A stretch of DNA of 64,000 bases from a bacterium (GTDB lineage Bacteria > SZUA-182 > DTGQ01 > JAFGSM01), in contig JBLIRP010000004.1 in NCBI GenBank assembly GCA_049472355.1, positions 1 to 64,000 on the forward strand. The letters are read 5' to 3'. The number at the start of each line of letters is the position of its first letter. The stretch's first letter is position 1. Positions 5,417 to 53,559 of the stretch are shown piece by piece. The notes beneath the pieces were generated by a model. The model did not search any database and was not told the origin of the DNA. It saw nothing but the letters and a program-made list of their open reading frames with translations. The translations under genes were made by a program, and so were the position numbers.

Positions 5417-6385
5417 TTGGAAACCCATAATCCTCACAGAGCGATTACCGGCAACCCTCCCGACCCTATCACCCTGTCCGGGAAGGAATCCTATCACCTG
5501 CAGTTTCGTTTCGAATACGGCTTTCTGGACGATGGGACCCTCTGGATAAGGACCCCCGCAAAGGGCCTCTATCATGTGGATTGGCTCACGCTTCGCCTGC
5601 TCCTGGAACTGAACGCGGGTGTACCGCTGGACACGCTCTGCAAAAAGTACAAGGTTGATCCACAGGAACTCGGAAAGCTCCTGATCAACCTGCAGCAGGA
5701 GGGGGCCGTCGTTTCTCCCAGGGAGGGCAAGATCACCCAGGCACACCAGACGGATGACATCCCTATCGCCCCCTTCGTGTTTCTCTTCATCCTGCTCGCC
5801 GCGATTCAGATCGAGTACTTCCAGGGTATGGCCCACACCTTTCGCCTCAGGCATTGGTACGAGGCCCTGCTCCTGGGCCTGGTCTCCATGCTTCCCATCG
5901 TGCTGCACGAACTGGGACACTATCTCACCTCGCGCCCCTACTTCCCTTCGCGCCTCGGTTTCACCTTCCTGTGGGTCTTCCCCGCTGTTTACATCGACAC
6001 CCATCCATCCTGGTGCCTGCCGCGCAACATTCGACTGCTCATCAACTCAGCGGGGCTCCTCGCGGACCTCGTGTTCAACACCCTCCTGATCTTCCTGGTG
6101 TTCTATAACCCTTCTTTGGAATACTATGTAACCCCGCTGCTCATACTGCAGTACACCCGCTGGAGCATCATTCTCAACCCCCTGGTAAACGGCGACGGAT
6201 ACTGGCTCCTCTCCGACTTCACCCGCACCGTCAACATGCGCCAGAAGGCATGGAAGTACCTTCGCACCCGGCGTTTCCACTGGCTTTCACTCTACGGGTT
6301 CCTCGCACTCCTCTTCTCGATCTTCTCGGTGCTGGGACTCATCTGGTTTGCCGTGAACCTGTTTCGCATAGGTATATCACTATGA
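5417..6385 (+). CDS. PqqD-like RiPP recognition element (RRE) fused to an M50-family (site-2 protease-like) integral membrane zinc metalloprotease. It has a TTG start with a GGAGGAG SD 8 nt upstream.
   Basis: The N-terminal ~100 aa (YHVDWLTLRLLLELNAGVPLDTLCKKYKVDPQELGKLLINLQQEGAVV) fit the PqqD/RRE pattern. The membrane domain has HELGH (HExxH) within a TM helix and a downstream NPLVNGDGYWLL (LDG-type) motif, as in M50 peptidases. It is divergent from atpB and directly upstream of the rSAM genes. Confidence 0.7.
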   Translation: METHNPHRAITGNPPDPITLSGKESYHLQFRFEYGFLDDGTLWIRTPAKGLYHVDWLTLRLLLELNAGVPLDTLCKKYKVDPQELGKLLINLQQEGAVVSPREGKITQAHQTDDIPIAPFVFLFILLAAIQIEYFQGMAHTFRLRHWYEALLLGLVSMLPIVLHELGHYLTSRPYFPSRLGFTFLWVFPAVYIDTHPSWCLPRNIRLLINSAGLLADLVFNTLLIFLVFYNPSLEYYVTPLLILQYTRWSIILNPLVNGDGYWLLSDFTRTVNMRQKAWKYLRTRRFHWLSLYGFLALLFSIFSVLGLIWFAVNLFRIGISL

Positions 6386-6406
6386 GGGTCTAACCCTTCG
6401 AGGGAG

Positions 6407-8461
6407 ATGACAATGAACTATGCCTTTCTGAAGATACTGTTGATCATACTGGGCGGCATTGCCCTGGTAGGCTCTTCGATGAAGATCATGAAGGAATATG
6501 AACGGGCCGTGGTCTTCCGCCTGGGAAAACTCCTTGGCACCAAGGGTCCCGGCCTGATATTCCTTATACCCCTCTTTGACCGGATCAAGACGGTGGACCT
6601 TCGGCTGGTGTCCATCGACGTGCCGCGGCAGGACATCATGACCAGAGACAATGTGCCGGTCACCGTGGACGCGGTGGTCTATTTTCAGATCACCGACCCC
6701 TCGTGCGCGGTCATCACCATCCAGGACATCTATCAGTCCACCTTCCTCATCGCCCAGGCGACGCTGCGCAACGTGCTCGGGCAGGTGGAACTGGATGATC
6801 TGCTCAGCCAGCAGACCAAGATAAACGAACAACTGGAGAAGATCATCTCCGTACATACCAAACAGTGGGGGATCCGGATTTCCATCGTGGAGATCAAGGA
6901 GGTCACCCTGCCGGAGCAGATGAAACGGGCCATGGCCAAACAGGCGGAGACGGAGCGGGAGCGGAGGGCCAGGCTCATCGATGCCCAGGCCGAGTATCAG
7001 GCCTCCCGGACCCTGGCGGATGCGGGAAGGATCCTGGCCCAGAATCCCCAGGGATTGCAGCTCCGCTATCTGCAAACCCTTAGGGATATCTCCTCGAACA
7101 AGGGCTCCACCATACTCTTTCCCATGCCGCTAAACCTCCTGAGCCCCTTCCTGGACAGGGTGGGCGAGGTGTTCAAGACCGCACGGGGTACACAGCCATC
7201 TGAGGCGGAATCCATCCCTGCCGGAAGGAGCGCATCCACACCTGCAGTCGAGCCCCTCACGGAAAAGCATAAGTCCGCAACCCCGGTTGCCGAACCATTT
7301 CCGGTGAATGAAAGGCCAGCAGCCACGCCCGCCGAGCCCCTCTTCGCGCAGACAAAAACCGCACCCCAGGCAGCCGTTCCGCAGGGCGACCTCACAGAGC
7401 AATCGCTCATCGAACGATATACCAAACGCACCGCGGAAGGGGGGGTGGTGCCGCGGTTCGTGCAGTGGGTGCTCACCGATCGATGCCAGTTTCAATGCCC
7501 CCACTGTGATACCGCCGCCGGGGGGCCACAGGAAGGCGAGCTTACCACTGAGCAGGCACACAAGGTGGTGGACGACCTTGCCGCGATGGGATGCGAGTTC
7601 CTCTCCCTCACCGGCGGAGAGCCGATGCTGCGCGAGGATTTCTTTGCCGTCGCCTGCTATGCCAAGGAGAAGGGATTGCCCCTCGGCCTGACCACCAACG
7701 CGCAGGCCGTCGAGGAGCACCTTGCAGCGCTTGCCGATCTCAAACTCGATTCGGTGGTGGTGACCCTGGACGGCTACGGCGACGTCCAGAACAGGATACG
7801 CAATGCGCATGATTCCTACGAGCGGGGGATCAGGGGGATCGAGTTCTTCCACGATATCGGCGTTCCCAGGATCTGCGTGTCCACGATCCTTGTCGAGGAG
7901 AGCCTCGCCGGGCTCCCCCGTTTGACGGAGGATGTGTTCCGGTCAGGCGCCAATCTGATGCAGGTACAGCCGCAGGTATACCTGAATGGCCGACCGGAGC
8001 GCAACACGCCCGAGGTGGTGAAGGGGGCCTTCAAATTCATCCTGGGGGCCCGAACACGCGGATTTCCCGTGGAGGCAGGGGAACAATTCGGCTTTCTTGG
8101 CCCCCTGGAGCAGATCCTGAGGCCATCCCCGTTTTTCTGCGGGTGCGGGTGGAACACCTTTTGCATTACCAACAATGGAACGATCCAGGGCTGTCAGGCC
8201 TTGTCCCGTACGGATATCCGCGAGGGAAACTGCACGCAGGATACATTAAGCATAATATGGCAGGAGGGTTTCACGTCTTTTCGTAAAGAAACACCCGAAT
8301 CCCTTCCGGAGGGATGTCGGCGATGCCCTCACCTTTCCGTGTGCAGGGGGGGATGCTGGATCCTCCGCGTGTACGGGTTGAATCCCTGCTTCCTGCTGGA
8401 GGCGGAACAGGTTCACCGGGAGATTACCGATGCAGCAGCGCTATATCCTCAAACTCCTTAA
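6407..8461 (+). CDS. Fusion protein: N-terminal TM anchor plus stomatin/SPFH (band 7) domain, a Pro/Ala/Thr-rich linker, then a radical SAM domain with a C-terminal SPASM domain
   Basis: Residues ~25-245 align almost residue-for-residue with stomatin (EYERAVVFRLGKLLGTKGPGLIFLIPLFDRIKTVDLR...IAQATLRNVLGQVELDDLLSQ...GLQLRYLQTLRDISSNKGSTILFPMPLNLL). Residues ~345-684 carry the CxxxCxxC motif (CQFQCPHC), a GGEP motif (LTGGEPML) and a Cys-rich SPASM tail (FFCGCGWNTFCITNNGTIQGC...CRRCPHLSVCRGGC). The SD sits at 6400-6406; ATG 6407 and ATG 6413 are both possible starts. Confidence 0.8.
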   Translation: MTMNYAFLKILLIILGGIALVGSSMKIMKEYERAVVFRLGKLLGTKGPGLIFLIPLFDRIKTVDLRLVSIDVPRQDIMTRDNVPVTVDAVVYFQITDPSCAVITIQDIYQSTFLIAQATLRNVLGQVELDDLLSQQTKINEQLEKIISVHTKQWGIRISIVEIKEVTLPEQMKRAMAKQAETERERRARLIDAQAEYQASRTLADAGRILAQNPQGLQLRYLQTLRDISSNKGSTILFPMPLNLLSPFLDRVGEVFKTARGTQPSEAESIPAGRSASTPAVEPLTEKHKSATPVAEPFPVNERPAATPAEPLFAQTKTAPQAAVPQGDLTEQSLIERYTKRTAEGGVVPRFVQWVLTDRCQFQCPHCDTAAGGPQEGELTTEQAHKVVDDLAAMGCEFLSLTGGEPMLREDFFAVACYAKEKGLPLGLTTNAQAVEEHLAALADLKLDSVVVTLDGYGDVQNRIRNAHDSYERGIRGIEFFHDIGVPRICVSTILVEESLAGLPRLTEDVFRSGANLMQVQPQVYLNGRPERNTPEVVKGAFKFILGARTRGFPVEAGEQFGFLGPLEQILRPSPFFCGCGWNTFCITNNGTIQGCQALSRTDIREGNCTQDTLSIIWQEGFTSFRKETPESLPEGCRRCPHLSVCRGGCWILRVYGLNPCFLLEAEQVHREITDAAALYPQTP

Positions 8462-9536
8462 GGAGCGACCCAGGTACTTCCTGGACCGGATCAGGTTCTA
8501 TCCCAAGAACGTGGTGTGGGAGCTCACCCTGCGGTGCAACATGAACTGCGCCCACTGCGGGTCCACCGCCGGGCATGCCAGGCAGGAGGAGCTGAATCAC
8601 GATGAGGCCCTGGATCTCTGCCGCCAGCTCGGGGAGATGGGGTGCGAGATCCTCACCCTGCTCGGGGGCGAGCCCTTCATGCGGGAGGACTGGGACGACC
8701 TCGCCCGGTGTCTCGGGTCGCACGGGGTGCGGGTGAATGCCATCACCAACGGCTATGCCATGGACCAGGCGCTGGCCGACCGGATCAAAAAGGCACGCCT
8801 CACCAACGTGGCCGTCAGTATCGACGGTCTCAAAAAAACACACGAGAAGATACGAAGAAAGCCCGACTGCTACCAGCGGGCCCTGAACGCCCTCGACATC
8901 CTTCAAAAAAACGGGATATCCACCGCGGTGGTCACCACCATCTGCCGTGACAACCTCCCGGAGCTGGACGGCCTCTACGAGGTGATACTCCGGCAACGGG
9001 TGGAGATCTGGCAGATCCAGATCGGGGTCCCCCGGGGGAGGCTGTGCGAACACAGCGACTACATCATCCAGCCGGAGAACCTCCCGGAGCTCGAGCGGTT
9101 CACCCTGAAGATTCGGGAGGAACGACGACTGCGCCTGGATATCGCAGACAATATCGGCTATTTCGGCAGAAGCGAGGAGGTCCTGAGGGCGGGCCCCACG
9201 GCGAGGCTGCCCTTCTGGACCGGCTGCTATGCGGGGATCCAGGCCATGGGCGTCGATGCAAACGGGGACATCAAGGGATGTCTCTCCATGCCGTCGTTGC
9301 CCGAATTCATCGAAGGAAACGTGCGCAAAGAGCCCCTCAAGACGATCTGGGAAAGGCCGGGGGCCTTTTCCTACAATCGCGATTTCCGTGCGGATATGCT
9401 CGAGGGGGATTGCGCGGATTGCGAATATGGTCATATCTGCCGTGCAGGATGTAAATCCACGGCCTATTGCTTTACCGGTTCCTTTTTCAACAACCCCTAT
9501 TGCTTTCACCGGATCGAAAGCAAAGGAAGGGAGTGA
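8430..9536 (+). CDS. Radical SAM/SPASM domain peptide-modifying enzyme (second of a tandem pair)
   Basis: The motifs are CNMNCAHC (CxxxCxxC), LLGGEPFMRED and a SPASM C-terminus (GCYAGIQAMGVDANGDIKGC...EGDCADCEYGHICRAGCKSTAYCF). It overlaps the upstream gene by 32 nt, which indicates translational coupling. Confidence 0.85.
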   Translation: MQQRYILKLLKERPRYFLDRIRFYPKNVVWELTLRCNMNCAHCGSTAGHARQEELNHDEALDLCRQLGEMGCEILTLLGGEPFMREDWDDLARCLGSHGVRVNAITNGYAMDQALADRIKKARLTNVAVSIDGLKKTHEKIRRKPDCYQRALNALDILQKNGISTAVVTTICRDNLPELDGLYEVILRQRVEIWQIQIGVPRGRLCEHSDYIIQPENLPELERFTLKIREERRLRLDIADNIGYFGRSEEVLRAGPTARLPFWTGCYAGIQAMGVDANGDIKGCLSMPSLPEFIEGNVRKEPLKTIWERPGAFSYNRDFRADMLEGDCADCEYGHICRAGCKSTAYCFTGSFFNNPYCFHRIESKGRE

Positions 9537-9543: not shown

Positions 9544-10080
9544 ATGCCGCATATATTCTTTGAACCCCTGGAAAAAAGACGGAGCACGCAGACACTCTTT
9601 CCCACGTTCGGCGGCAATACCGCCATAGCCATCTACTCGGCACCGGTGCCCGAATACGGGGTCGGGATCGGATACACCCCGCCCTCAAACAACTACCTCC
9701 TGTACGGGATCAATCCGCCTTCGAGCGGCTATTCACCGTGGTCGGGAGGGGGGCTCTTCGGGTGGTCGAATCCCTTTAACAGCTACAATCCCTGGGGCTC
9801 ATGGGGTTCATCATGGAGCTCCCCCTGGGGCTGGGGCTCATCCTGGAGTTCCCCCTGGGGTTCCGGAAGCTGGTCCTCCCCCTTCGGGGGCTTCTTCGGC
9901 GGTTTCTTCGGGGGACTCTTCGGAGGCTCTTCTCCCTGGTCATGGGGAGGCAGCCCGAGCTTCCCGGACATCCGGCTTCTGTACGGGGTTTTCCCCAATC
10001 CCACCCCTCCCACTGAAATCATCGCCTTTTACGGGGTCGGGATACCGAGTGTGAGTTCATTCTCGGGAACCCTCTGGTAG
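9544..10080 (+). CDS. Gly/Ser/Trp/Pro-rich repetitive protein (178 aa). It is the candidate precursor or substrate of the adjacent radical SAM enzymes.
   Basis: ATG lies 8 nt after the rSAM stop, with a GGGAG SD. High GC3 throughout. The sequence reads MPHIFFEPLEKRRSTQTLFPTFGG...YSPWSGGGLFGWSNPFNSYNPWGSWGSSWSSPWGWGSSWSSPWGSGSWSSPFGGFFGGFFGGLFGGSSPWSWGGSPSF..., with degenerate tandem SSWSSPWG-like repeats at protein and DNA level. There is no obvious Sec signal. The antisense ORF in the same repeats is shorter and non-operonic. Confidence 0.55.
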   Translation: MPHIFFEPLEKRRSTQTLFPTFGGNTAIAIYSAPVPEYGVGIGYTPPSNNYLLYGINPPSSGYSPWSGGGLFGWSNPFNSYNPWGSWGSSWSSPWGWGSSWSSPWGSGSWSSPFGGFFGGFFGGLFGGSSPWSWGGSPSFPDIRLLYGVFPNPTPPTEIIAFYGVGIPSVSSFSGTLW

Positions 10081-10724: not shown

Positions 10725-11630
10725 ATGAAGGTTGGATGGTTTTTCGTTTTCTTGAAGTATTACTTCAACACCCGGTTATTGGGCAGAAGGACCCCGCTTC
10801 TTGCCGGGTTCAAGATCACCCACAAGTGCAACCTCACCTGCCGCCACTGTCCCTTCTGGCACGAAAACCTCCCCCAGATGACCTTCCAGGAGGTTAAGGG
10901 GGTTTTAAAACGCCTGCATGCCATGGGGATCAGAATCCTTCTCATCGAGGGCGGGGAACCCTTCCTCTGGCGTGATGGAGCATTCGGGCTCCAGGATGTG
11001 GTGAATGAGGCGAAGCGTTATTTCTTGAGCGTGGGGGTGACCACAAACGGAACCATATCCCTGGACCTTGATTCCAACAGCCTCTGGGTGAGCCTGGACG
11101 GACTCAGGGACACGCACAACCACATCCGCGGCCAGGACATCTTCGATCGGGTGGTCGCAAACATCGAATCCTGCACCCATCCCAACCTCTATGTCAACAC
11201 CACCATCAACAGCCTCAACTGGAAGGAGATACCCGATCTGGTCAAGTTTCTGAAGGACAAGGTCAAGGGGGTGACCATTCAGTTCTACTACCCTTATGAA
11301 AAAACGGACCGGTTGATGCTCACCAACGGACAGAGGATAACCGTGCTCGATGAGCTCATCCGGCTCAAACGGGAGGGATGGCCGGTGATCAATTCATTCC
11401 GGGCACTTGAAAACCTGAAGACCAACAACTGGACCCGCCGATGCAAGGAATGGATGATCACGAGCGTCGAGCCTGACGGCACCATCACCCAGGGTTGCTA
11501 TGTGAAGAACCGTGATACCGTGCAGTGCGAGGTATGCGGATTTTCCACCAACACCGAGATCACCCTTGCCTACGAGCTTGTGTTCGAGTCCATCAATGTA
11601 GGAAGAAGGGTATTCAACTACAGCCGCTGA
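10725..11630 (+). CDS. Radical SAM protein (third in cluster) with a truncated C-terminal Cys-rich (twitch/SPASM-like) region
   Basis: Motifs are KCNLTCRHC (CxxxCxxC), LIEGGEPFL and C-terminal cysteines (CKEWMITSVEPDGTITQGCYVKNRDTVQCEVCGF). It is preceded by an AT-rich ~650-nt spacer. Confidence 0.8.
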   Translation: MKVGWFFVFLKYYFNTRLLGRRTPLLAGFKITHKCNLTCRHCPFWHENLPQMTFQEVKGVLKRLHAMGIRILLIEGGEPFLWRDGAFGLQDVVNEAKRYFLSVGVTTNGTISLDLDSNSLWVSLDGLRDTHNHIRGQDIFDRVVANIESCTHPNLYVNTTINSLNWKEIPDLVKFLKDKVKGVTIQFYYPYEKTDRLMLTNGQRITVLDELIRLKREGWPVINSFRALENLKTNNWTRRCKEWMITSVEPDGTITQGCYVKNRDTVQCEVCGFSTNTEITLAYELVFESINVGRRVFNYSR

Positions 11631-11862: not shown

Positions 11863-12990
11863 TCACAGGGCGAGGTTCGGTATCTGATCGATCACCAGGA
11901 ACGCAAAGGAGACCCTGCTCACGGCGTTCTCCAGAAGCATCCTGGAGTAGGCGGGATTGTGGGCACCCCTGCTCCCGTCGGCCTTCACAAAGAGGTAAAC
12001 ATCCCGGGCAAGGGTATAAATCCCGTTGATCCGGCTTATGTCCTGCCCCATTTCCTCGGCCCTTCGAATGCCCTCGGCCAGCGCGGGAAGACGATCCTCC
12101 AGCGTCTTCAAGGTGCGGGCGATCACCGCCCTCTCCTGCTCCTCCTGCGACAAGGTTTGGGCATCGTGACACTCCAGGCATGTCTGGACAGGGCGGGGCA
12201 CGCACCCCTGAGTATGGCAGTCCACGCAGTCCAGACGGACACGCTGATGGGCGGAGGCCTCGCCTGCAGGGATGCCCCCCCCGATATTCCCCAGCAGCAT
12301 GGCCTCCTGATAGATGTGGCAGTATTCGCACTGACTCCGGGAGGCAATCTCGTCGTTGTGGCAGGGAAAACAGAAATCCTTCATGGTGGGGAGGTTTTTT
12401 CCTGCCGGATCGAAACCGTGGGCTATCCGGTCATGGCACACCACACAGGCATACCCTTTTGATATGTGGAGGGCGTGATTGACCCGGATCGAAGAGCCCC
12501 GGTCCATCGTCCACGGGTCGGTATGACATCCCCGGCGCACACAGTATACCGGTTTCTCCGCCTTTATATCATCATCGTAGTTGGCAGTCACATGGTTCCA
12601 CAGGAAAACGAGCCCCCCCAGCTTCGCCTTTATCTTCCCCCCAAAACCCGGGGCGGTGTGACATGCCAGGCAATCCTCCTTGCTCCCGGTGAGTGACCCG
12701 TGAAACGATCGCTCCCATGTCTCATGGGCGGGTTTCATTTCATGGCAGAGGATACAGGACTGCGGCCGGTAGGAATACTCGAGAATAAGCGACATGGCAG
12801 CAATTGCAACCACAAAGATTCCACCGGCCCAGAAGGCGAAACGGACCGGATCCTGGTGCCACAACCTCCTCAAGAAGAAGGAAAGCCCCCCGGTCGCCCC
12901 TGTTTTGTCATGCCCGGACTGGGCGTCGGTTCCCGGTTCAAATCCCATGGTACATCCCTGTTGTCTCGTGTGCTCAAAAGGGCACTCCAA
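11863..12990 (-). CDS. Membrane-anchored multiheme c-type cytochrome (seven CxxCH motifs; NapC/NirT/NrfH-like N-terminus)
   Basis: Heme motifs are CILCH, CLACH, CVVCH, CFPCH, CEYCH, CVDCH and CLECH. The N-terminal TM helix followed by CxxCH...W..S.H is typical of the NapC/NirT family. Confidence 0.8.
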   Translation of the reverse strand: MECPFEHTRQQGCTMGFEPGTDAQSGHDKTGATGGLSFFLRRLWHQDPVRFAFWAGGIFVVAIAAMSLILEYSYRPQSCILCHEMKPAHETWERSFHGSLTGSKEDCLACHTAPGFGGKIKAKLGGLVFLWNHVTANYDDDIKAEKPVYCVRRGCHTDPWTMDRGSSIRVNHALHISKGYACVVCHDRIAHGFDPAGKNLPTMKDFCFPCHNDEIASRSQCEYCHIYQEAMLLGNIGGGIPAGEASAHQRVRLDCVDCHTQGCVPRPVQTCLECHDAQTLSQEEQERAVIARTLKTLEDRLPALAEGIRRAEEMGQDISRINGIYTLARDVYLFVKADGSRGAHNPAYSRMLLENAVSRVSFAFLVIDQIPNLAL

Positions 12991-15649: not shown

Positions 15650-16216
15650 ATGACCGAATCGGAAAAGAGGCTTCTTACACTGCTCGCCAACATTTCTTAC
15701 CACTACAGCCCCACACCCAGCTTCCGCCTGGCCTCGGGCAGGATGAGTCAGTTCTATATCGATTGCAAGACCACCACCCTCACCCCCGAAGGTCTCGTTC
15801 TGACCGGTGAGGTGATCTACGAAAGGATCAAGGGGTGCAACCTGCAGGGTGTGGGCGGGCTCGAATTCGGCGCCATCCCCCTTGCCCTCGCCACTTCGAT
15901 GCACGCCTTCCGCCAGGGGGTATCCCTCCAGCCCTTCGTCGTTCGCAAACAGGCAAAGGAGAGAGGCCTCAAAAAGGCCATAGAGGGACAGATCGATGAA
16001 GGTGCACGGGTGGTGGTCCTCGAGGATGTGGTGACCACGGGGGGGTCCTCTCTCACCGCAGTGGAGCGGCTCAGGGAGGCCCGCATCGAGGTGGATCACA
16101 TCCTGGCGATGGTGGATCGGGACGAAGGGGGCAAGGAGGCCTTTCTTCGAGCCGGCCTGCGGATGGAATCCATCTTCACCCTGGACGACCTCATCCATGT
16201 CCTCCAGGAGCAATGA
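15650..16216 (+). CDS. pyrE: Orotate phosphoribosyltransferase
   Basis: PRPP-binding motif VVVLEDVVTTGGS. The 188-aa product starts MTESEKRLLTLL. The longer upstream ORF extension is unlikely to be real. Confidence 0.85.
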   Translation: MTESEKRLLTLLANISYHYSPTPSFRLASGRMSQFYIDCKTTTLTPEGLVLTGEVIYERIKGCNLQGVGGLEFGAIPLALATSMHAFRQGVSLQPFVVRKQAKERGLKKAIEGQIDEGARVVVLEDVVTTGGSSLTAVERLREARIEVDHILAMVDRDEGGKEAFLRAGLRMESIFTLDDLIHVLQEQ

Positions 16217-17507
16217 ACCCATCGTGTCCCCTGACGATCTCCCCTCCCTTGTTATTGCAGACATGGAGGGAAGGATTTTCGACCATCCCTCTATGGGCAT
16301 GGCGGGCATGTCCGGACGCACCCCGTGCCTGCCCCAGCCCGGCGAAATGGTGCCCCTCCCCTTCGGAAGCACCCTTTTTTACATGCCCGGCCGAGTGCCC
16401 CTGGGATGGGACAGGGAGAAAAACCGTATCGGACCCTGTACCGAGGCAACGACCAAGGGCCGCACAGGAATGTGCTTCGCGGTTGCCGCCTTTCTCCCCC
16501 CCGGATACGTCAGGACACTCCTCCCGGCAACCCGCCTCCTCAAAGGTGCGCCAACCCTCCCCCTCTGGGCTTACGCCGCCGTGGGATGGAAGGAGGGCAA
16601 ATTCTGGGCTACCGGCATCCATGTGGATCCGAATCCGCACTGGGACCCGGTCTTCTTTCAGGATGACGAGGGGCTCACTCGACTGGTTCGCGAGGCACTC
16701 TCCCGCATGCCCGGCAACAGGCTGCTCAGCCATCTGGCGCGCTGCGCCATGGAGTATCATTGCTTTGCCGCCAAGAACTGCTTCTATCGCCGATGGGAAC
16801 TGCCGTTGCCCACCTCCCCCGGATGCAACGCCCGATGCCTGGGATGCATCTCCCTCCAGCCCGCCGGATGCTGCCCCGCCCCCCATGGCAGGATCAGCTT
16901 CGTGCCCACCGTGGAAGAGATCTGCGACATCACCCTCCCCCACCTCCTGGAGGCGGAGGACCCGATCGCCAGTTTCGGGCAGGGATGTGAAGGCGAGCCC
17001 ATCCTCCAGGCAGGAGTGATCGAACGGGCAGTGGAACGGCTCAGAACACACACCACGCGGGGGATCATCAACCTCAATACGAACGGGAGCAAGCCGGATG
17101 TCATCGACCGGCTCTGCAAGGCAGGGACGGACAGCATCAGGGTCAGCCTGAATTCACCCCATCCGCCGTTCTTCACTACATACCATCGGCCAATGGGGTT
17201 CTCTTTGCAGGAGGTCAAAGCGTCGCTCATCCTGGCCCGTGAGGCGGGCGCCTCCTCCGCAATCAATCTCCTCGTATTTCCGGGTGTCACGGACAGGGAG
17301 GAAGAGCGTGACCGGCTGGTCCGGTTTATCCGGGAAACCGGCATCGACCAAATCCAGATGAGAAACCTGAACATCGATCCCGATCTCTACTGCGCCGCAG
17401 TAACGACCGAAGGTCCCCGGTATCCGCTGCCCCTCGTGATGGCAGACCTCCAGGAGGTGTCTCCGAACCTCACCTTCGGCTATTTCAACCGGGCAAAAAG
17501 GGAATGA
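16197..17507 (+). CDS. Radical SAM domain protein, uncharacterized family, Cys-rich N-terminal domain
   Basis: CNARCLGC (CxxxCxxC) at about residue 215. It overlaps the pyrE stop by 20 nt. Its function is not recognisable from sequence alone. Confidence 0.6.
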   Translation: MSSRSNEPIVSPDDLPSLVIADMEGRIFDHPSMGMAGMSGRTPCLPQPGEMVPLPFGSTLFYMPGRVPLGWDREKNRIGPCTEATTKGRTGMCFAVAAFLPPGYVRTLLPATRLLKGAPTLPLWAYAAVGWKEGKFWATGIHVDPNPHWDPVFFQDDEGLTRLVREALSRMPGNRLLSHLARCAMEYHCFAAKNCFYRRWELPLPTSPGCNARCLGCISLQPAGCCPAPHGRISFVPTVEEICDITLPHLLEAEDPIASFGQGCEGEPILQAGVIERAVERLRTHTTRGIINLNTNGSKPDVIDRLCKAGTDSIRVSLNSPHPPFFTTYHRPMGFSLQEVKASLILAREAGASSAINLLVFPGVTDREEERDRLVRFIRETGIDQIQMRNLNIDPDLYCAAVTTEGPRYPLPLVMADLQEVSPNLTFGYFNRAKRE

Positions 17508-34802: not shown

Positions 34803-37800
34803 ATGGCTTCAAAAAACCGTCATAAAAAAATCAGTTTCATAACCTTGGCAGGCTCGATTCTTCTTCTGTTTTTCTGGGTAAATACTTCCCGGGCGCAAAC
34901 GGCTGCCGAATACATTGCACAGGGGAGGGCGCATCTCTCACAGCATACGATGGAAGGTCTCATGAATGCCCATTCGAAATTTCAGGCAGCACTGGTGATT
35001 GAACCCAATAATCCAGAGGCCAATTTTTTCTTTTCGCTCACTCGCCTGCCTGCACTTTTGGATAATTCCGCATCATATACCGATGGTTTTCCCATTGAAA
35101 ATGCCAAGGAACTCTTGGATGGTCTTGATGTGGATGCGGAAGGGAGGGACCTCTTTGAATGGGAAGCCAAATTCACTGAAGACGGCAGCGGGGATGTCCT
35201 TTTGCCTTCTGATTCCCCCACAGGTGATGTAGTTCAGGATTTTTTAACATCTGTCATCATGTCCGAGATTGAAGGGGTACTTACCGATCTCACCAATTTG
35301 GATGCGACATTTACTACCGTGTTGACCGCTTCGGAGACCGGAGAGGAACAAGATATTGAGATCGATTATGGGGATATCCTTTTGTACCGATCCCTACTGA
35401 ATGTCGCCAAGATGGGGCTCTCTTTCATATCCGCCTACGACATGGATGTGGATATCGATACCTTAGTGAATATGAACAGCGAGCTTTTTGATGTGGACGA
35501 GGATCTTCTCGATGTTTATCCGAACCTGTTGACACTGCTCTTGGATGGCGACGATCTCATGGCTGATGCAGGGAATGCCCTGCTCTCGGCCATTGATGCC
35601 TTTGATGAGGCCTCTTTGTTCATTCAGGAGACAGAAACGGACAACCAGGAGGACGATCTTGTCACCCCTGATGAAATAGCCGGAGGTGGTGATTTCAAAT
35701 GCAAACCAATAGTGGAACAGATCAAAGGCTCCCTGGTGAACAAGGAGCCTGCAGACCTTTCGCGCATTGAGGAAACCTGGGAATTGACGGATGATCATGG
35801 AAATACCATCCTTATGAGAATAGAAAAAGACCATGCCGGCAATTTCCTGGGCGGGGACTTTCACGGCATCGATGGTTGCAGTTTTCTGGCCTGCCGCGGA
35901 TGGGTTGAAGACTTCTCAATGGTGGACTCAAATATAGTCATCACCACTGCATGCGGGGGCGGGTGTCCTTGCTCAGCCATACTCGAAGGTCGGATGAACG
36001 AAGATGGGACGCGAATCATTTCAGGGACGTATCTGTCGCAGGATTGTCTCGAAACTGTATCCGGGACCTTTACCGGACTAAGGACCGAATATGAAGAGAC
36101 TCCTATGAGGATTGATGTGAGCGAGTTCTTTGACGACCCCATCAGCATCCGGGATTATCTGCCTGGGCTTACCCATGATCCATACACACGTGAGATCATG
36201 CTGGCAAAAAGTCTTATGGAGTCTTTCCCGGACCGGACCCTGTCGGGCATCTTTCCTGACGGATTGCCGGTCGAAGGATTCGGGCTCGATCTGGTCACGA
36301 TCCGAGGGGGAAGCGCATCCGGGGGGTCTTCTTACGGCGTTGCTTCATGCCTTGTGTGGGGCCTTGCCCCCTGGGATATCGAGTCCCTCACCATTTATGG
36401 TCCTCTGGGTTTGCAGTATGAATTTGATCTGGAAAAGGACACCATGGTGTTTTACAAATACGGGATGATGTATAACGTTAGTGCTCCTTCCTATCCGCCT
36501 GAAGGGTGGTATGAATTTGTTTTGATCGACAAACAGGGTCGAAGCGTATCTGCAGGCAGATATTTCACCCCCAATCCCATCGATGTGGTGGATATAGCAA
36601 CAGGCGAATCTCCCGCAGACAAGGCCTATGTAAACACCCTGACGCCTGCCTTGAACTGGTCGCCTGTGACGGATGAACGGATTGATACGCTATATTACAG
36701 GGTGAATATCATGGACTGGAATGGGAAGGTCAATGTCTATTCATCCGACAGGGTTGCAGGCACGACAATAACGGTGCCGGCGGGTATCCTGATGCCCAAC
36801 GAGGTCTATCAATGGAATGTTCGGGTATTTGACAGCGCGAACGGCACCAGTGCGAATAATTTTTCTTCCAGTGATTGGAAGGTCTTTTGCACAGGCGGTG
36901 AAAACGATCCGCTGAATATCGAATTGGCCTTTGTTCATAGCAGGGTGGAGCCAGATGATATGCATGACATGACCCTTTTTGCCATCGATATAGACGGGCC
37001 TGCACCCTATGATATCGGCTCCCTGGCAGTGTCAGGCCCGGGAGGATTCTCGCATACCTTCGACCCCATCGATGATTACCATTCCGATATCTACCTGCAC
37101 CACGAAGACGGTATCCTTACGGACGGGACCTATACCTTTACTATTGTGGATGATCGAGACGGCAACACACTGTCTGTTGACCGGGATTTTACTTTCAATC
37201 GCCTGCCCGTCCCTGAAGAGCTGCATACCCCATCCTTTGAGTCATATGTCCGGACGACCACGCCAACCTTCAGCTGGAGCAGGGCACATGACGAGACGGT
37301 GGATCCCCTCTCCTATCGGGTGATGATCTATGATTATAATCATAACATTATTTACAAATCTCCTCGCTCCCCGGAGACATCCGCAACGGTTCCCCCGGAT
37401 TGCTTGAAAATCCATAACCCCTATTTCTGGCGCGTTCAGGTGTTTGATGGGACCTCCACGATTCAAAACAGCGCGGTTACGAATATGATGCCCTTTTATG
37501 TTGTAGCGGACAATCCACCTTCGATCATTTCAGGACAGATTGAGACAGGGATGAGCGGTTATACGGGCGGCGATATCTTCGTCTGCGTGTTCGATCAGGC
37601 CCTGCAACCTCTTGCATCTCCCCTCTTCTGTGTCACCCTTTCCGATATAGGTTCGTATACCCTGTATGACCCGCCTACCAATACGGATCTTTATATCTAT
37701 GCCCTCTGGGACAAGGACGGGAGTGATTGTTACACAGCCGGTGACTGGGCGGGGATATACGCTGAAAATCCGGTTGTGCTCGACGACGGCGGTATTTTTA

Positions 37801-40784
37801 CGAATGCCGATATCGCCTTAAATAACGAGATCCCATCGGCATCGGTGACCGGGCATGTCAGTTGTGATGATTTTGAGCCGGGTCTCGGTGACATCTCTAT
37901 TTTTGCATTTGACGGGGAAGATCCCTCAGATGCGCATCTGCTTGATTCCACGTCCATTGGGAGCCCATCCGAGGCATACACCCTGTCCAATCTTCCGGTC
38001 GATGTCTATGCCTACCTGTTTGCCCGTTGGGATAGGGATGGTAGCGGGACGAAGACACCACCGGACTGTCTGGGAAAATATTCAGAGAATCCGCTCCTTA
38101 TAGAAAGTGGGGGCCTTACGGGCATCGATATTGCGCTTATTCCAACGCTCATTGACCCATTTTCCGTAGATATTCACTGGATCTATTACAATGACAATTC
38201 CGGCAGAACGATTGATTATGATTATTTCGATGCGGATGACATCAATGAAGATGGAGATATCACCTTCCCCCCGGAGGCTCTCATATCCGTTCCTGATGAG
38301 GAATCAAATGCCATCTTCACCTGGGAATCCGTAATGGGAAATCAGGAAACATATATTTCCGGCGGGGTATATCAGGTGGCAGTACCCCAGGCCCAGGACG
38401 CGGTCAAGGCAATTCCCACTGCAGATATCAGCATATATAGTCCAATCGAGGAATGGGATGGGATCCCGTTATATATCGAGGATGCATTGCTCGATAATCC
38501 ATCGTGGATCCCCGAAGGTGCGGATGCGGATATGCACTATCTGAAATTGGCTTATAGCCCTGATCTTTCTAAACTCAATATCCTCATGAAATTGGAGGGT
38601 GAGGCGAATCCGAACGTCTGGTATCGTCTCTTCCTGGATAAGGATTTGGATGGAAGGACGGATGAACCGGGAGACTATCACATAGATTTTCAAAATCAAG
38701 CCGGTATTTGGGAGGTCGTAAGCCAGGGTTGGAATTCTGAAAATGGCTGGGACCGGTATCCGGTTGAGGAAAATGGCATGGTTGTCATATCCGGCGAATT
38801 CATACAAGCGACCGTAAACACCGCATCTTTCGGGCTTCCGGGTGAAGTCAATATCTACGGCCGTACAATGCAAAATGACTATCCTTACAGCAATTATGAC
38901 ACCTTTTCCACTAATTATTTAGAGGCGAACGGCCTATCCGTGATAGGCGGGCATAACATTACGGCATCATCTCCGACGGAATGGGAGTTTGCCCTGGGCA
39001 CTACGAACTTCCGAAATGTGTCGAAGGATCAGCATTATTACGATGTGTGTGTCGGGATCGGGGGTTCACGTTTTGCGAGAGGAAATGTAGAGGCCGATAT
39101 TGATGCGGCATGGTTTACCGGCACATACCAGGGCGTTTTTTATGAAGATGCCCTGATATTCACGGCACATGTTTACAATCAACTGGGTGGGGACGATCAC
39201 TATGCATGGGATTGGGACCTCGAAACCGGAGAGGGGCTCATCCTGACCGGGCTCGATCCGACAAGCACGACGTTGGACTTCAAGGTGACAACCACGGATG
39301 ATGGTCGGACCTTTTCCGGCTATTATCGCATAAACAGCAATGATGAATCGGACTGGCAGTTATTGGTCACGCATACCTTGCCCCCGGATACCGGAGTAAT
39401 ATGTGGCTTTCCTGAATGCTCCCCTTCGGTACATTTCGAGACGGGGATAATCCCGCTCGAATATCTTTGTGATGGTGATATCAATCACGATGATGAAATA
39501 ACCCCCATCGATGCCCTATGTGCCTTCCAAACCTATTTGGAGATATGTCCGACAAGATGCGGGCCATGTGAGGGCATATGCTGCGATGTGAATATGGATG
39601 ACGACTGCACGCCGGCCGATGCGCTGTGTATTTTCCGGAAATATCTCGGAATCCCCTGTTGTCTGGATAAAGAAAATCTCAACATAGGTAAGGCCTTTGC
39701 TCTTCTGAATACGGGGGAGCAAGGCACAACTCGGCTTATTGTGCTTGCGGATATCAGAGACGATACAGGGGCACAGGTGCCTTTTGCCGATGTATGGGTG
39801 GTTGATCCTCAAGGGAATACGATACAGCTAAGACGAAATAACGGGCACGGTCTTTATGAAGGAAGTCCTGCCGGTTCCGAGATCTTGCTCGGAGATTATA
39901 CGTTTTATGCCGAATACGCGATTCATGAAGCAGCGCCGGTAGTGAAAAATGTAAGTAGTTTAGAGATCCTTGAGCCTCCGGTGTTGTTAAATTTTCAGCT
40001 TCCTGAGGAAGGACAGCCCTGGGCTGTTTCCTGGGAGCAGGTTCCGGGAGCGCAAGGTTATCTTGTCATGCTCAGGTATGACAATAATGACGACCAACCG
40101 CTCTTTACAAATGTTGCTGATATTTTTTCAAGTACGTTGCCGACCGCTCATTCGGTGGAGATCCCTGCAGGATTGGTGCATCCTCATGCGGATTATGAGC
40201 TGGAAGTGATTGCGGCCAACGGCACGACTCTTGAAGGTACGACCGCGATTTCTTCGCTGCAAGAGGAATTCAGTACCAGGCCGCCATTTTCTGTTCCCTA
40301 TAAGACGATAGCTATTGATGGAAATTACAACGACTGGTCGGATCCAAACGACCTTGTGTATTGGGACACGGACGGCCCGGATTGTGCTGGGGGGCAGGAT
40401 ATCCAAAAGGTATATCTTGCGCAGGACGATACCTTCCTGTATGTGCGTTATGTGCTTGGCGGCCCGTTGGACCAGTCATTTGGATATAAGTTTGGTGACG
40501 GCCGGTTGCACACCTACGTTTCAAATACCAATGGTCAGAAGCGTTTATTCTGGGCCTGGGATCATACAGAGTATGACATAGATGATTTGGGTTATCCCTT
40601 GAGCAGCCAAGAGCAACCTGCTGATTTCGTTTCAATAGACGGGAATCAATTTGAAATAAAGTTCCTTAAATCAGACGCTCGGATTTGGCAAGGGAGGGAC
40701 ATTGATGCCTGGAGCGACCAAGGTCATGAAACTGTCTGCACGGACATGTGCCGGTTGCCGGAGATATTGGATTTGGATTTCTGA
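34803..40784 (+). CDS. Giant secreted repetitive protein (1993 aa). It has an N-terminal signal peptide and TPR-like region, multiple FN3/Ig-like beta modules, and a Cys-rich dockerin-type double calcium-binding repeat near residue 1560.
   Basis: Signal peptide MASKNRHKKISFITLAGSILLLFFWVNTSRAQT. Repeated modules include YVNTLTPALNWSPVTDERIDTLYYRVNIMDWNGKV...YQWNVRVFD and TPTFSWSRAHDETVDPLSYRVMIYDY...YFWRVQVFD. The dockerin-like segments are CDGDINHDDEITPIDALCAFQTYLE and CDVNMDDDCTPADALCIFRKYLG. Confidence 0.85.
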   Translation: MASKNRHKKISFITLAGSILLLFFWVNTSRAQTAAEYIAQGRAHLSQHTMEGLMNAHSKFQAALVIEPNNPEANFFFSLTRLPALLDNSASYTDGFPIENAKELLDGLDVDAEGRDLFEWEAKFTEDGSGDVLLPSDSPTGDVVQDFLTSVIMSEIEGVLTDLTNLDATFTTVLTASETGEEQDIEIDYGDILLYRSLLNVAKMGLSFISAYDMDVDIDTLVNMNSELFDVDEDLLDVYPNLLTLLLDGDDLMADAGNALLSAIDAFDEASLFIQETETDNQEDDLVTPDEIAGGGDFKCKPIVEQIKGSLVNKEPADLSRIEETWELTDDHGNTILMRIEKDHAGNFLGGDFHGIDGCSFLACRGWVEDFSMVDSNIVITTACGGGCPCSAILEGRMNEDGTRIISGTYLSQDCLETVSGTFTGLRTEYEETPMRIDVSEFFDDPISIRDYLPGLTHDPYTREIMLAKSLMESFPDRTLSGIFPDGLPVEGFGLDLVTIRGGSASGGSSYGVASCLVWGLAPWDIESLTIYGPLGLQYEFDLEKDTMVFYKYGMMYNVSAPSYPPEGWYEFVLIDKQGRSVSAGRYFTPNPIDVVDIATGESPADKAYVNTLTPALNWSPVTDERIDTLYYRVNIMDWNGKVNVYSSDRVAGTTITVPAGILMPNEVYQWNVRVFDSANGTSANNFSSSDWKVFCTGGENDPLNIELAFVHSRVEPDDMHDMTLFAIDIDGPAPYDIGSLAVSGPGGFSHTFDPIDDYHSDIYLHHEDGILTDGTYTFTIVDDRDGNTLSVDRDFTFNRLPVPEELHTPSFESYVRTTTPTFSWSRAHDETVDPLSYRVMIYDYNHNIIYKSPRSPETSATVPPDCLKIHNPYFWRVQVFDGTSTIQNSAVTNMMPFYVVADNPPSIISGQIETGMSGYTGGDIFVCVFDQALQPLASPLFCVTLSDIGSYTLYDPPTNTDLYIYALWDKDGSDCYTAGDWAGIYAENPVVLDDGGIFTNADIALNNEIPSASVTGHVSCDDFEPGLGDISIFAFDGEDPSDAHLLDSTSIGSPSEAYTLSNLPVDVYAYLFARWDRDGSGTKTPPDCLGKYSENPLLIESGGLTGIDIALIPTLIDPFSVDIHWIYYNDNSGRTIDYDYFDADDINEDGDITFPPEALISVPDEESNAIFTWESVMGNQETYISGGVYQVAVPQAQDAVKAIPTADISIYSPIEEWDGIPLYIEDALLDNPSWIPEGADADMHYLKLAYSPDLSKLNILMKLEGEANPNVWYRLFLDKDLDGRTDEPGDYHIDFQNQAGIWEVVSQGWNSENGWDRYPVEENGMVVISGEFIQATVNTASFGLPGEVNIYGRTMQNDYPYSNYDTFSTNYLEANGLSVIGGHNITASSPTEWEFALGTTNFRNVSKDQHYYDVCVGIGGSRFARGNVEADIDAAWFTGTYQGVFYEDALIFTAHVYNQLGGDDHYAWDWDLETGEGLILTGLDPTSTTLDFKVTTTDDGRTFSGYYRINSNDESDWQLLVTHTLPPDTGVICGFPECSPSVHFETGIIPLEYLCDGDINHDDEITPIDALCAFQTYLEICPTRCGPCEGICCDVNMDDDCTPADALCIFRKYLGIPCCLDKENLNIGKAFALLNTGEQGTTRLIVLADIRDDTGAQVPFADVWVVDPQGNTIQLRRNNGHGLYEGSPAGSEILLGDYTFYAEYAIHEAAPVVKNVSSLEILEPPVLLNFQLPEEGQPWAVSWEQVPGAQGYLVMLRYDNNDDQPLFTNVADIFSSTLPTAHSVEIPAGLVHPHADYELEVIAANGTTLEGTTAISSLQEEFSTRPPFSVPYKTIAIDGNYNDWSDPNDLVYWDTDGPDCAGGQDIQKVYLAQDDTFLYVRYVLGGPLDQSFGYKFGDGRLHTYVSNTNGQKRLFWAWDHTEYDIDDLGYPLSSQEQPADFVSIDGNQFEIKFLKSDARIWQGRDIDAWSDQGHETVCTDMCRLPEILDLDF

Positions 40785-41323: not shown

Positions 41324-43183
41324 GTGGACGCAATGATGCAAAGGGCAAGATGTCTATGCATCCTGACGGTCTTTATCGTGCTGCTTACCTTGATGACAGG
41401 TATGGCCGGGGCGAAGACGGGGACCGAGCACCCATTCCTTTTGGACGTTCCCGCCTCCTATAACCTGCCGTTGTGGATGTATTCCTGGAATCCCTCTTTG
41501 GCCTGGAAGGGCATGGCCGGGGCGAAGATAGAGATCCAATATCCAGTCCCTTTGGACATTCCCGGCTCTTATACATCATCGATAGGGATGCCTTTATGGA
41601 ATACACCCTTAGGCCGGATCGGGAATGGCCCTGCCGATCACCTCAGTCATGCCTATTATGCATGGTTGTATCCATCAACCCTCAATTATATTCCCCTGTG
41701 GTCCCATCCATGGTTCTATTCCTCTTCCCCATCCCAAAAAGCGGCAAAACCGTTCCACCCTGTTTTTGAGAACCTGAGTCTTTTCAAAATGGGCCCTCTC
41801 TATGCCCAAATCGATGAGCCCTACCGATATCTGTTCATCGCTGATTATACATATCATACATCCGAGAGCATAGAGTTGTACTTTATGGATGGTGATCAGC
41901 TCTCATGTACCAGTATTTTTGATCTCTTGCTTCATCCCGTAGAATTCCTCCTCTTTGTCAACGACCCCAATGATCCGAATGATCCGGTGGCGAAATACTG
42001 GATGGATCTCGGGGCGGACCCGGCCCTGTTTGGTGAAAACGATCCGCATATGGCTGCCCTTTTCGGCAGGGCATCGTTCAAGGTCGATCTCGACCTGCCC
42101 ATCTTTGCTGACCCGAATCTAAGGTTCGGTGGTCATTTGGCGGAGAGGATCATCGAACAGGGCCATATGGGGTGGAAGGTAACCGTGAATGGAGCTGTTC
42201 AGGGGCAGCCCCTGCAGATCAATCCGCTCCCGGTGGACCCCTATGATGGTATGCCCACCTATCTGCCGGCAAACTATACCGCGGTCAAGACGATAGATGC
42301 CTATGCCAAGCCATTCTATCGTATGGACGTTGTGTTCGTTCTGGAGGGCGCGCTGTGGAACTCCGGTGTGTCGGTCTGGCCGAATGTGGCTGCACTGGAT
42401 TACACGCCGCAGGATTTTGAAGACCTGATGGTGACCATCGAGGTGACCAACGGAATAGATTCGGAGGTCAGCATCTTTCCCATCACCGTACTTGATTACC
42501 CTGTGGAAAATTATGATCCTGTGCCGGCATCCGATGAGGTCGAACTGACAGTATATGTGGGAGAATCGTTTCGTTATGCTCTTTGGTGCATCGACCCGGA
42601 TTGTTTCATCTTCTCACAGGCTTACAATCTGTATGGAGAGGTCCCTGACACCACGCATGTGCCTTGGAATGCCCCGGGCATGGCATTCAGGACTGACATG
42701 TCCTCCCTGGAATGGGACATTCCGGGGGACTACTCCATCAGCAACTTCAATCCATCCTCGGGGCTCATCTCATGGGTCCCGGTGCGTGAAGGGATTCATA
42801 CTATGGTCGTGACCTGTTCGGACAACCATGGCGGTACCGCCGACATCGAATTGAAAATCTCCACTGAATGCCGCGGAGGCCCCTGCAATAATCCGCCCAT
42901 CATCACAGGCGCTCCCACACAAATCCTGACAATCATTGCCGGACAGGAGTTCGTCCTGGGTCCACCCGATTTCTCAGTGGAAGATCCGGATTACGATGAG
43001 ATCTACGCATCCTGCAATGTCGGTTCCTGCGAGAGGGATGGGGATGGCAACTTTGTGTGGAAATTTCAGAGCGACTTCCCAGGCTCTTATATGGTTGAGA
43101 TCATCTTCCACGATATCAGAGGGGGACATGCAATAATGGAATTCTTTGTGGACGTGCAACCATGGTGGGTGAATCCTTCATGA
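41324..43183 (+). CDS. Secreted hypothetical protein (619 aa) with an N-terminal signal peptide. The likely start is ATG 41333.
   Basis: MMQRARCLCILTVFIVLLTLMTGMAGA signal. There is an internal duplication (MAGAKTGTEHPFLLDVPASYNLPLWMYSWNPSLAW / MAGAKIEIQYPVPLDIPGSYTSSIGMPLWNTPLG). C-terminal beta-rich Ig-like regions. No catalytic motif recognised. Confidence 0.6.
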   Translation: MDAMMQRARCLCILTVFIVLLTLMTGMAGAKTGTEHPFLLDVPASYNLPLWMYSWNPSLAWKGMAGAKIEIQYPVPLDIPGSYTSSIGMPLWNTPLGRIGNGPADHLSHAYYAWLYPSTLNYIPLWSHPWFYSSSPSQKAAKPFHPVFENLSLFKMGPLYAQIDEPYRYLFIADYTYHTSESIELYFMDGDQLSCTSIFDLLLHPVEFLLFVNDPNDPNDPVAKYWMDLGADPALFGENDPHMAALFGRASFKVDLDLPIFADPNLRFGGHLAERIIEQGHMGWKVTVNGAVQGQPLQINPLPVDPYDGMPTYLPANYTAVKTIDAYAKPFYRMDVVFVLEGALWNSGVSVWPNVAALDYTPQDFEDLMVTIEVTNGIDSEVSIFPITVLDYPVENYDPVPASDEVELTVYVGESFRYALWCIDPDCFIFSQAYNLYGEVPDTTHVPWNAPGMAFRTDMSSLEWDIPGDYSISNFNPSSGLISWVPVREGIHTMVVTCSDNHGGTADIELKISTECRGGPCNNPPIITGAPTQILTIIAGQEFVLGPPDFSVEDPDYDEIYASCNVGSCERDGDGNFVWKFQSDFPGSYMVEIIFHDIRGGHAIMEFFVDVQPWWVNPS

Positions 43184-50111: not shown

Positions 50112-50124
50112 CAAGGAGGAAGCA

Positions 50125-53537: not shown

Positions 53538-53559
53538 CAGGCGATCGTGAAGAAGTGTG

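Follow-up and report, generated by a model that had tools for sequence, protein, structure and literature searches.

A stomatin module fused to a radical SAM/SPASM enzyme in a RiPP-type operon with a predicted RRE-bearing intramembrane protease

In a 64,000-nucleotide stretch of bacterial DNA (assembly GCA_049472355.1, contig JBLIRP010000004.1, positions 1 to 64,000, forward strand; GTDB lineage Bacteria; SZUA-182; DTGQ01; JAFGSM01), hereafter the window, a single gene joins a membrane-anchored stomatin module of the SPFH family to a radical S-adenosylmethionine (rSAM) enzyme with a SPASM region. This fusion is real, conserved and very rare, and it is undescribed as far as our literature search reached: no description combining SPFH, stomatin or Band 7 with radical SAM, SPASM, peptides that are ribosomally synthesized and modified post-translationally (RiPPs) or site-2 protease (S2P) was found in the open-access literature, in line with the original prediction, made from the sequence alone, which did not recognise the architecture as described. 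The gene belongs, by its sequence context, to a four-gene operon of RiPP type composed of an S2P-type protease with a predicted RiPP recognition element (RRE), the fusion, a second rSAM enzyme (rSAM2) and, across relatives, one to three precursors. Since neither domain is out of the ordinary for its known superfamily, and the operon belongs to the RiPP type, the system is not categorically new. With moderate confidence, we propose that the products form a membrane-organised RiPP-type maturation complex, in which an anchored stomatin with a tethered rSAM domain lies beside the RRE-S2P protease, and whose topology, oligomeric state, protease contact, substrate and chemistry we infer.

The fused gene, its conservation and its rarity

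No stop codon interrupts the 2055 nucleotides (nt) of the open reading frame (ORF) at 6407-8461. The gene had been predicted over exactly this interval, and its open frame of 684 codons stands, whereas its start does not: a ribosome-binding-site-like GAGGGAG at 6397-6403 lies 9 nt from ATG 6413 and only 3 nt from ATG 6407, and most homologues, like an identical NCBI protein (P0001, 682 amino acids (aa), 100% identity, from a metagenome-assembled genome (MAG) and annotated as 'SPFH domain-containing protein'), begin at MNYAF..., which corresponds to the second ATG. Consequently position 6413 is preferred and is the likely start of the gene. Three Pfam families exceed their gathering thresholds in the translated frame, namely Band_7 (PF01145, residues 27-196, E 1.6e-37, 129.7 bits against a cut-off of 23.6), Radical_SAM (PF04055, residues 355-495, E 1.8e-23, 84 bits against 29.5) and SPASM (PF13186, residues 578-641, 28.6 bits against 21.5).

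The N-terminal part is a full stomatin with its anchor, as had been anticipated. In phmmer searches residues 18-247 aligned with the cryo-EM entries of the human stomatin 16-mer (9wmj, 9oh9, 9wkz and 9z7u; E around 1e-63, 7e-64 at best) with a single 2-residue gap, the C-terminal STILFPMPLNLL pairing with human STIVFPLPIDML, and the matches to Pyrococcus stomatin (1e-49) and E. coli QmcA (1e-32) were also strong, those to HflK/C, flotillin and prohibitin being far weaker (HflK 1e-9, prohibitin about 1e-3). A Foldseek search with the module reached 2e-17, and the Band_7 score, the anchor, the wall and cap helices and the STIxFPxPxxxL strand motif all place it in the SPFH/stomatin family. Between the cap motif and the rSAM core lie 106 aa, of which 64% are P, E, K, S, T, A or Q and which are modelled with a predicted local distance difference test (pLDDT) score below 50, so that the anticipated Pro/Ala/Thr-rich linker of about 100 aa is indeed present and predicted to be disordered; the monomer model as a whole scores 63.6.

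Likewise, the C-terminal part carries the complete CxxxCxxC and SPASM maturase that had been read from it. C360, C364, C367, the GGEP motif (403-406) and eight cysteines of the SPASM region are invariant in an alignment of 18 family members; these eight are predicted to be enough for two auxiliary [4Fe-4S] clusters and, judged by its motifs, the domain is catalytically complete. Its sequence matches among proteins of known structure are PqqE, SkfB and MoaA, and its Foldseek matches are SkfB, PqqE, SuiB and anSME, at 1e-13 to 1e-10. No NCBIfam equivalog (TIGR04133, nif11_3, MftC, GDL-motif, PqqE, StsB, WgkB and others) reaches its cut-off for the fusion, the best score being 121 against 425, with 111 against 265 for MftC and 83 against 381 for PqqE. 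The domain has neither an RRE of its own nor a PqqD partner. An anti-phage defence system was considered and rejected: the PADLOC models returned only a partial, generic similarity to the viperin-like (pVip) rSAM core, and nothing for the protease or the precursor.

A search covering 5.8 billion clustered proteins returned, beyond P0001, about 18 full-length homologues at 54-87% identity with Band_7 and Radical_SAM (and SPASM) domains, originating from NCBI, JGI, ENA and Logan assemblies. In the alignment conservation peaks in the SPFH module (mean pairwise identity 80%, 106 of 223 columns invariant), which indicates that this module is under selection; the rSAM core (63%, 39 of 175 columns) and the SPASM region (62%, 44 of 155) follow, and the tether, 34 to 240 aa long across the family, is almost free to vary (22%, 1 of 98 columns). 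A conserved scaffold and a conserved enzyme joined by a freely varying linker point to a functional fusion and not to an assembly error. The original prediction would have failed had the ORF turned out to be two genes run together by a frameshift or by a chimeric assembly. We rejected this explanation as scarcely credible, because about 20 independent homologues keep an uninterrupted fused ORF with tethers differing in length and sequence, and the ORF of the window is itself free of stops. In the short metagenome contig L091 (1-1310) the end of the stomatin does lie in frame 0 while frame 2 encodes the rSAM part, but the change of frame falls within an A-rich (Lys-rich), homopolymer-prone stretch of the tether, and the alternative frame continues the family consensus; L091 would thus reflect a homopolymer error or, failing that, a rare and natural re-splitting of the fused gene.

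The rarity of the architecture was apparent in an index-free HMMER search of 1.84 billion representatives at 50% identity (about 15 billion proteins), which found one two-domain cluster, P0004, and its fragment P0169. The only other protein matched over two stretches, P0176, is a tandem stomatin and was discarded as an independent SPFH-rSAM fusion. At least three full-length fusion loci are present among GTDB species representatives. Searching a word index with the rSAM domain alone yielded seven proteins but not the fusions themselves, and this search is thus uninformative as a census.

The operon and its unfused relatives

The gene immediately upstream had been taken for an M50 protease, and this assignment holds. 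In 23 homologues the HExxH (H164, E165, H168) and NPxxxxDG (N254, P255, D260, G261) motifs are invariant, and the AlphaFold2 (AF2) model (pLDDT 82.4) has a beta3-alpha3 domain at the N-terminus and a helical membrane domain after it, the zinc-ligand motifs in transmembrane helices and the S2P fold both placing the protein in the S2P/M50 group. Its only family matches, all sub-threshold, are the intramembrane HExxH proteases of daptide and of YydH/LiaK epipeptide systems and, faintly, M50. From the beta3-alpha3 domain and the HExxH membrane domain we deduce an RRE fused to an S2P/M50-type protease, the N-terminal domain being a putative RRE (the PqqD-like leader-binding fold) as judged from the modelled fold. 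It would be the sole RRE-type domain of the operon, since neither rSAM enzyme is predicted to carry one. The original picture is thereby refined by an RRE-like domain on the protease, and by an operon that also contains rSAM2 and a precursor gene. Proteases of the M50 family act as leader peptidases of RiPPs, as exemplified by EpeP and TglG in the epipeptide and pearlin pathways (PMC10885120), and a review of RiPP proteases mentions the coupling of an RRE to a protease only for the cysteine proteases of lasso peptides.

Downstream of the fusion, in the window as in five of six related loci, lies rSAM2, which shares about 30% identity with the rSAM domain of the fusion and whose best NCBIfam models, the nif11_3 and GDL-motif maturases, score far under their cut-offs. 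It is followed by the candidate precursor. The first 19 residues of this protein (MPHIFFEPLEKRRSTQTLF) are conserved in proteins at the same position of related loci, and its core is free of cysteine, nearly uncharged and rich in W, F, Y, G, S and P, with a repeated (L/Y/F)-Y-G-(V/I)-x-P; the pattern Y-[GAS]-[VIPAT] occurs 6 times against a mean of 1.0 in shuffled sequences, and 1 of 2000 shuffles reaches 6. A conserved leader with a variable core is found at this position in L001 (three copies), L003, L004 (two copies) and L006. Taken together, these precursor-like proteins of about 100-270 aa, unusually long for the RiPP type, share a leader of the form HIFFEKLEKRRSTQ or LFIEDLEKRKSTS and have hypervariable, Cys-free repeat or low-complexity cores with motifs such as Y-G-V/I-x-P, KYAPP, KPIPILAPTP, WGSSWSSPWG and GGLFGG; neither Pfam nor NCBIfam has a family that matches the candidate precursors. 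A leader/core precursor beside a modifying enzyme, an RRE-like domain and a leader-peptidase candidate thus appear together, and the cluster is predicted to be of RiPP type. Protease, fusion and rSAM2, together with one to three precursors, recur as a cassette amid unrelated flanks in L001/L002, L003 and L004. The L006 cassette has the same composition except that its protease gene is reduced to the RRE domain, which persists as a stand-alone ORF.

The protease family comprises about 46 clusters. From members at 38-51% identity, six distant cassettes were sampled, one in an Elusimicrobiota MAG (L084) and the remainder in unclassified metagenome contigs; a further member, P0159, is annotated as Omnitrophica. 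A stand-alone stomatin of 251-257 aa lies beside the protease and rSAM/SPASM genes in five of the six (L084, L085/L086, L089, L090 and L095). The gene order is precursor, rSAM2-type, protease and stomatin in L085/L086 and L089, and protease, stomatin and, 10 nt downstream, an rSAM2-type gene in L090. These cassette stomatins are 52-60% identical to the SPFH part of the window and up to 65% identical to other members of the fusion family, and, compared by BLAST with 120 stomatin-like proteins, they match the fusion proteins best. The signature Y(Y)QSTFLIAQ is present in four of the five, whereas L090 has HFDSTFMIAQ; among the top 120 stomatin matches, a set selected for similarity to the fusion, the YQSTF core is found in fusions only and is lacking from about 100 generic stomatins. 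L084 has an orthologue of the fused rSAM domain as a separate gene, with 41% identity over 340 residues, which stands directly between the precursor and the protease genes. Orthologues of rSAM2 in the split cassettes show 39-42% identity. A related leader, (L/I)F(I/L)E(D/E)LE(K/Q/V)R(K/R)STS, opens the distant precursors of L084, L085, L087, L089 and L095, whose cores are tandem repeats of KYGPGP plus PMYGIEPTPVPVQ, of KYAPPEPPI or of KPIPILAPTPIVAKPVVG.

Because a separate stomatin adjoins the same protease in other phyla, the partnership of stomatin, RRE-S2P protease and rSAM enzyme predates the fusion, which would be its lineage-specific hard-wiring. The relationship between split and fused genes argues for a functional, and probably also a physical, link among the stomatin, the protease and the rSAM chemistry.

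Two further features of the distant cassettes are recorded here. Genes for RND/OEP export follow the L084 cassette, and in L087:4926-7001, L088:357-2432, L095:3197-5281 and L090:916-2984 an rSAM/SPASM protein is fused to, or lies ahead of, a RimK-type ATP-grasp ligase, suggesting further modification (ligation) of related precursors.

A putative maturation complex and its alternatives

We hypothesize that the conserved N-terminal leader of the precursor docks on the RRE of the protease at the membrane, where the stomatin module would self-assemble around or beside the protease and concentrate the tethered rSAM domains. The tethered rSAM domain (rSAM1) and the soluble rSAM2 may then place radical modifications on the repeat-rich, Cys-free aromatic core, after which the S2P-type protease would cut off the leader and perhaps aid the release or export of the product. 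The lack of cysteine in the core argues against thioether crosslinks of the sactipeptide or ranthipeptide type; carbon-carbon or carbon-oxygen crosslinks, or epimerisation, at the Tyr-small-V/I/P motif and the Trp-rich region would be a speculation.

The orientation of the assembly follows from several considerations. Basic residues lie C-terminal of the anchor, radical SAM enzymes require the cytoplasm, and E. coli QmcA faces the cytoplasm and still makes membrane foci when GFP is fused to its C-terminus; accordingly, the stomatin module is expected on the cytoplasmic face. As for oligomerisation, in human stomatin the cap beta-strand motif builds the 16-mer barrel (PMC12344292), and by homology the fusion may oligomerise in the same way. 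By our own residue count, the human salt-bridge residues E30/K41, R174 and E196/R220 are kept in the fusion.

Several observations weigh against this complex. The equivalents of the human inter-subunit salt-bridge residues E262 and K235/E243 are, in the same residue mapping, changed in the fusion. In human stomatin, two prolines close the strand, and the C-termini then emerge from the dome apex (PMC12344292); by homology, the tether would exit there and the rSAM domains would lie outside a closed cage, with the RRE of an enclosed protease inside, and sixteen 37-kDa domains are too large for the cavity of about 12 nm (PMC12344292). The arrangement first pictured, with the enzyme caged beside the protease, thus stays a prediction. 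Neither a sequence-level PqqD search nor Pfam found anything in the RRE domain, and Foldseek found nothing significant for the RRE/protease model. At the level of gene content, L006 lacks the membrane part of the protease, the L087/L088 cassette has no stomatin, L093/L094 keep the protease, the fusion and a third rSAM gene (rSAM3) with neither rSAM2 nor a leader-type ORF within 10 kb, and the rSAM gene adjacent in L085, L089 and L090 is of the rSAM2 type and not of the fused type. Finally, oligomerisation, contact with the protease and modification of the precursor are all proposed from homology and context. The apex exit, L093/L094, L006 and the split cassettes of rSAM2 type keep two other explanations alive.

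According to the first, the stomatin module would be only a membrane anchor or multimerisation tag that raises the local concentration of the rSAM enzyme at the membrane, for example near an exporter or a hydrophobic substrate, with no enclosure or regulation of the protease. An exit of the tether at the dome apex suits outward display better than enclosure, and the uncharged, aromatic-rich core peptides could be membrane-associated. Nevertheless, full wall and cap helices and a barrel motif kept at 80% identity would be superfluous in a simple anchor, and the stomatin gene specifically adjoins the RRE-S2P gene even where it is fused to no enzyme, so that we regard this explanation as rather unlikely, if the strongest of the competitors. 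Less likely still is that the fused rSAM domain acts on another target (such as a lipid, a cofactor, the protease or the stomatin itself) and that rSAM2 alone matures the precursor with the HIFFE leader. This would agree with the gene content of L093/L094, with the prevalence of rSAM2-type over rSAM1-type partners in most split cassettes, and with the resemblance of rSAM3 to PTO1314/HpnH-type enzymes; yet the closest relatives of the fused domain are the peptide maturases PqqE, SkfB, SuiB, MftC and the nif11/GDL types, its unfused orthologue in L084 sits directly between precursor and protease genes, and the genome of L093 may hold a precursor elsewhere.

The Pyrococcus stomatin PH1511 is cleaved by the partner protease of its operon, and by analogy the stomatin part could be a cleavable tether, cut by the partner protease in or near the hydrophobic stomatin motif or the linker to free an active rSAM domain. 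The tether begins right after the hydrophobic FP(M/L)P(L/I)xLL motif and a membrane protease gene is immediately upstream, but we consider the idea improbable, as no observation points to cleavage, the tether has no conserved site and the partner is of the S2P type instead of an NfeD serine protease.

The membrane-organised maturation complex is therefore retained as our preferred explanation. A more ambitious version, in which the stomatin assembly is a membrane-bound compartment for radical peptide chemistry and an SPFH ring organises the RRE-S2P protease and a crown of rSAM domains, coupling leader capture, modification, leader removal and release, is advanced only tentatively. If true, no other SPFH scaffold before it would have had its enzyme and clients defined genetically, and the operon would represent a new RiPP-like class defined by a leader of the form FxExLExRxST, by Pro/aromatic cores in tandem repeats and by an RRE-S2P protease. 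The function of SPFH/stomatin cages and their choice of clients is an open question, especially for bacterial cytoplasm-facing stomatins such as QmcA. The fusion names a client in the gene itself by linking the scaffold covalently to a single enzyme, and in fused and unfused relatives alike that scaffold is genetically locked to an intramembrane protease that bears an RRE-like domain. With this family, it can be tested whether a pathway of several enzymes is organised by an SPFH assembly, whether such an assembly gates a protease of S2P type and how C-terminal cargo is arranged on the dome. For the RiPP field, the system offers an RRE (a fold-based call) on an M50-type leader peptidase, rSAM maturases with no RRE of their own and long, Cys-free repeat precursors.

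Genomic setting and comparison with known systems

Table 1. Coordinates of the operon, its predicted domains and motifs, and related ORFs (positions in the window unless a locus is named).
Feature	Position (nt)	Strand	Extent	Basis or remark
RRE-S2P/M50-type intramembrane zinc metalloprotease, first operon gene	5417..6385	+	322 aa	invariant motifs, AF2 fold
RRE-like domain of protease (putative)	5504-5698	+	residues ~30-94	AF2 model
HExxH of protease	5906-5920	+	residues 164-168	alignment of homologues
NPxxxxDG of protease		+	residues 254-261	alignment of homologues
SPFH(stomatin)-tether-rSAM/SPASM fusion	6407..8461	+	684 codons open	probable start ATG 6413, giving 682 aa
Hydrophobic N-terminal membrane anchor	6419..6478	+	residues ~5-24	sequence reading; K/R-rich KIMKEYER follows
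Stomatin module (SPFH1/2, wall and cap helices, cap beta-strand motif STILFPMPLNLL)	6479..7147	+	residues 25-247	Pfam, phmmer, Foldseek
Disordered P/A/T/E-rich tether	7148..7441	+	residues 248-345	pLDDT <50, low conservation
Radical SAM core	7442..7966	+	residues 346-520	Pfam Radical_SAM, invariant motifs, Foldseek
CX3CX2C	7484-7507	+	C360/C364/C367	invariant in family
GGEP motif		+	residues 403-406 of fusion	invariant in family
SPASM region	8138..8389	+	residues 578-661	eight invariant Cys: 578, 586, 596, 637, 640, 646, 650, 661
rSAM2, second rSAM/SPASM maturase	8430..9536	+	368 aa	Pfam Radical_SAM and SPASM; start overlaps fusion stop by 32 nt
Candidate precursor/substrate protein	9544..10080	+	178 aa	conserved leader (nt 9544-9600), variable core
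rSAM3, PTO1314/DUF3463-like (HpnH-like)	10725..11630	+	301 aa	Pfam/NCBIfam sub-threshold
Precursor-like ORFs, related loci	L001:11019-11660, L001:12387-13004, L003:10948-11586, L004:9027-9584, L004:9787-10389
Precursor-like ORFs, distant cassettes	L084:5162-5686, L085 ~4995 onward, L095:2254-3060

Whether rSAM3 belongs to the system is uncertain: its conservation is limited to the closest relatives (L004, L005/L093), which also share flanking synteny, it is missing from L001, L003 and L006, and it is set apart from the operon by 645 nt that contain promoter-like sites. A promoter and terminator scan gave nothing informative for the operon start, and an Rfam scan of the whole window gave no match. 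An F-type ATPase operon lies upstream of the cassette on the minus strand, and the rest of the window holds housekeeping and chemotaxis genes. Just downstream of the cassette, 11863-12990 (-) encodes a multihaem c-type cytochrome with a NapC/NirT N-terminal region and cytochrome c7/c3-like domains, suggesting an anaerobic respiratory lifestyle of the host, and a few kilobases away 16197-17507 (+) encodes another radical SAM protein of 436 aa (Pfam Radical_SAM, E 5e-13). Farther on are a 1993-aa ORF with a single weak Ig-like Pfam match (34803-40784, +), a 619-aa ORF with no Pfam match (41324-43183, +) and, at 48059-59613, a chemotaxis cluster (CheA, MCP, CheB) with a 796-aa HEAT-repeat protein.

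Among known systems, the rSAM/SPASM maturases of RiPPs (the fold of PqqE, SuiB, SkfB, MftC and anSME) have the same CX3CX2C, GGE and two-cluster SPASM features and are the best structural matches of the fused enzyme. In contrast to PqqE, SuiB, SkfB and MftC, it lacks both a PqqD partner and an RRE of its own, and it is tethered to a membrane scaffold instead of being soluble. The epipeptide (YydFGHIJ/EpeXEPAB) and daptide clusters likewise pair an rSAM enzyme with an intramembrane HExxH leader peptidase of M50 type (PMC10885120). However, the protease upstream of the fusion scores below the threshold of these families (50 against 300 bits), EpeP/YydH has no RRE as far as reported, no SPFH protein takes part, and their precursors are short peptides as opposed to the repeat proteins of 100-270 aa found here. 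In lasso-peptide B1/B2 systems an RRE is also coupled to a leader peptidase, but theirs is a soluble cysteine protease of transglutaminase fold and the one described here is an intramembrane zinc protease.

On the side of the scaffold, an NfeD partner gene is typical of prokaryotic stomatins. Domain annotation found no NfeD domain in the cassette of the window or in related loci, whereas many of the generic stomatin matches do have NfeD. The stomatin-NfeD operons (Pyrococcus PH1511/PH1510 and E. coli QmcA-YbbJ, PDB 8z5g) and the human cages (9oh9, 9wmj, 9z7u) share with the fusion the anchor, the SPFH domain, the wall and cap helices and the barrel motif, and in the former the stomatin gene likewise adjoins a membrane protease gene. 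They differ in the partner, which here is an RRE-S2P/M50 metalloprotease in a cassette devoid of NfeD, and in the 330-aa iron-sulfur enzyme that follows the stomatin of the fusion C-terminally; some human inter-subunit salt-bridge residues are different as well. HflK/C-FtsH and prohibitin-m-AAA also combine an SPFH assembly with a membrane zinc metalloprotease, and from them the logic of scaffolding and gating in our working hypothesis is borrowed. Nevertheless, their sequences are distant, HflK/C faces the periplasm, in contrast to the cytoplasmic orientation expected for the fusion, their partner is an AAA+ protease and, unlike in the fusion described here, no enzyme is joined to the scaffold.

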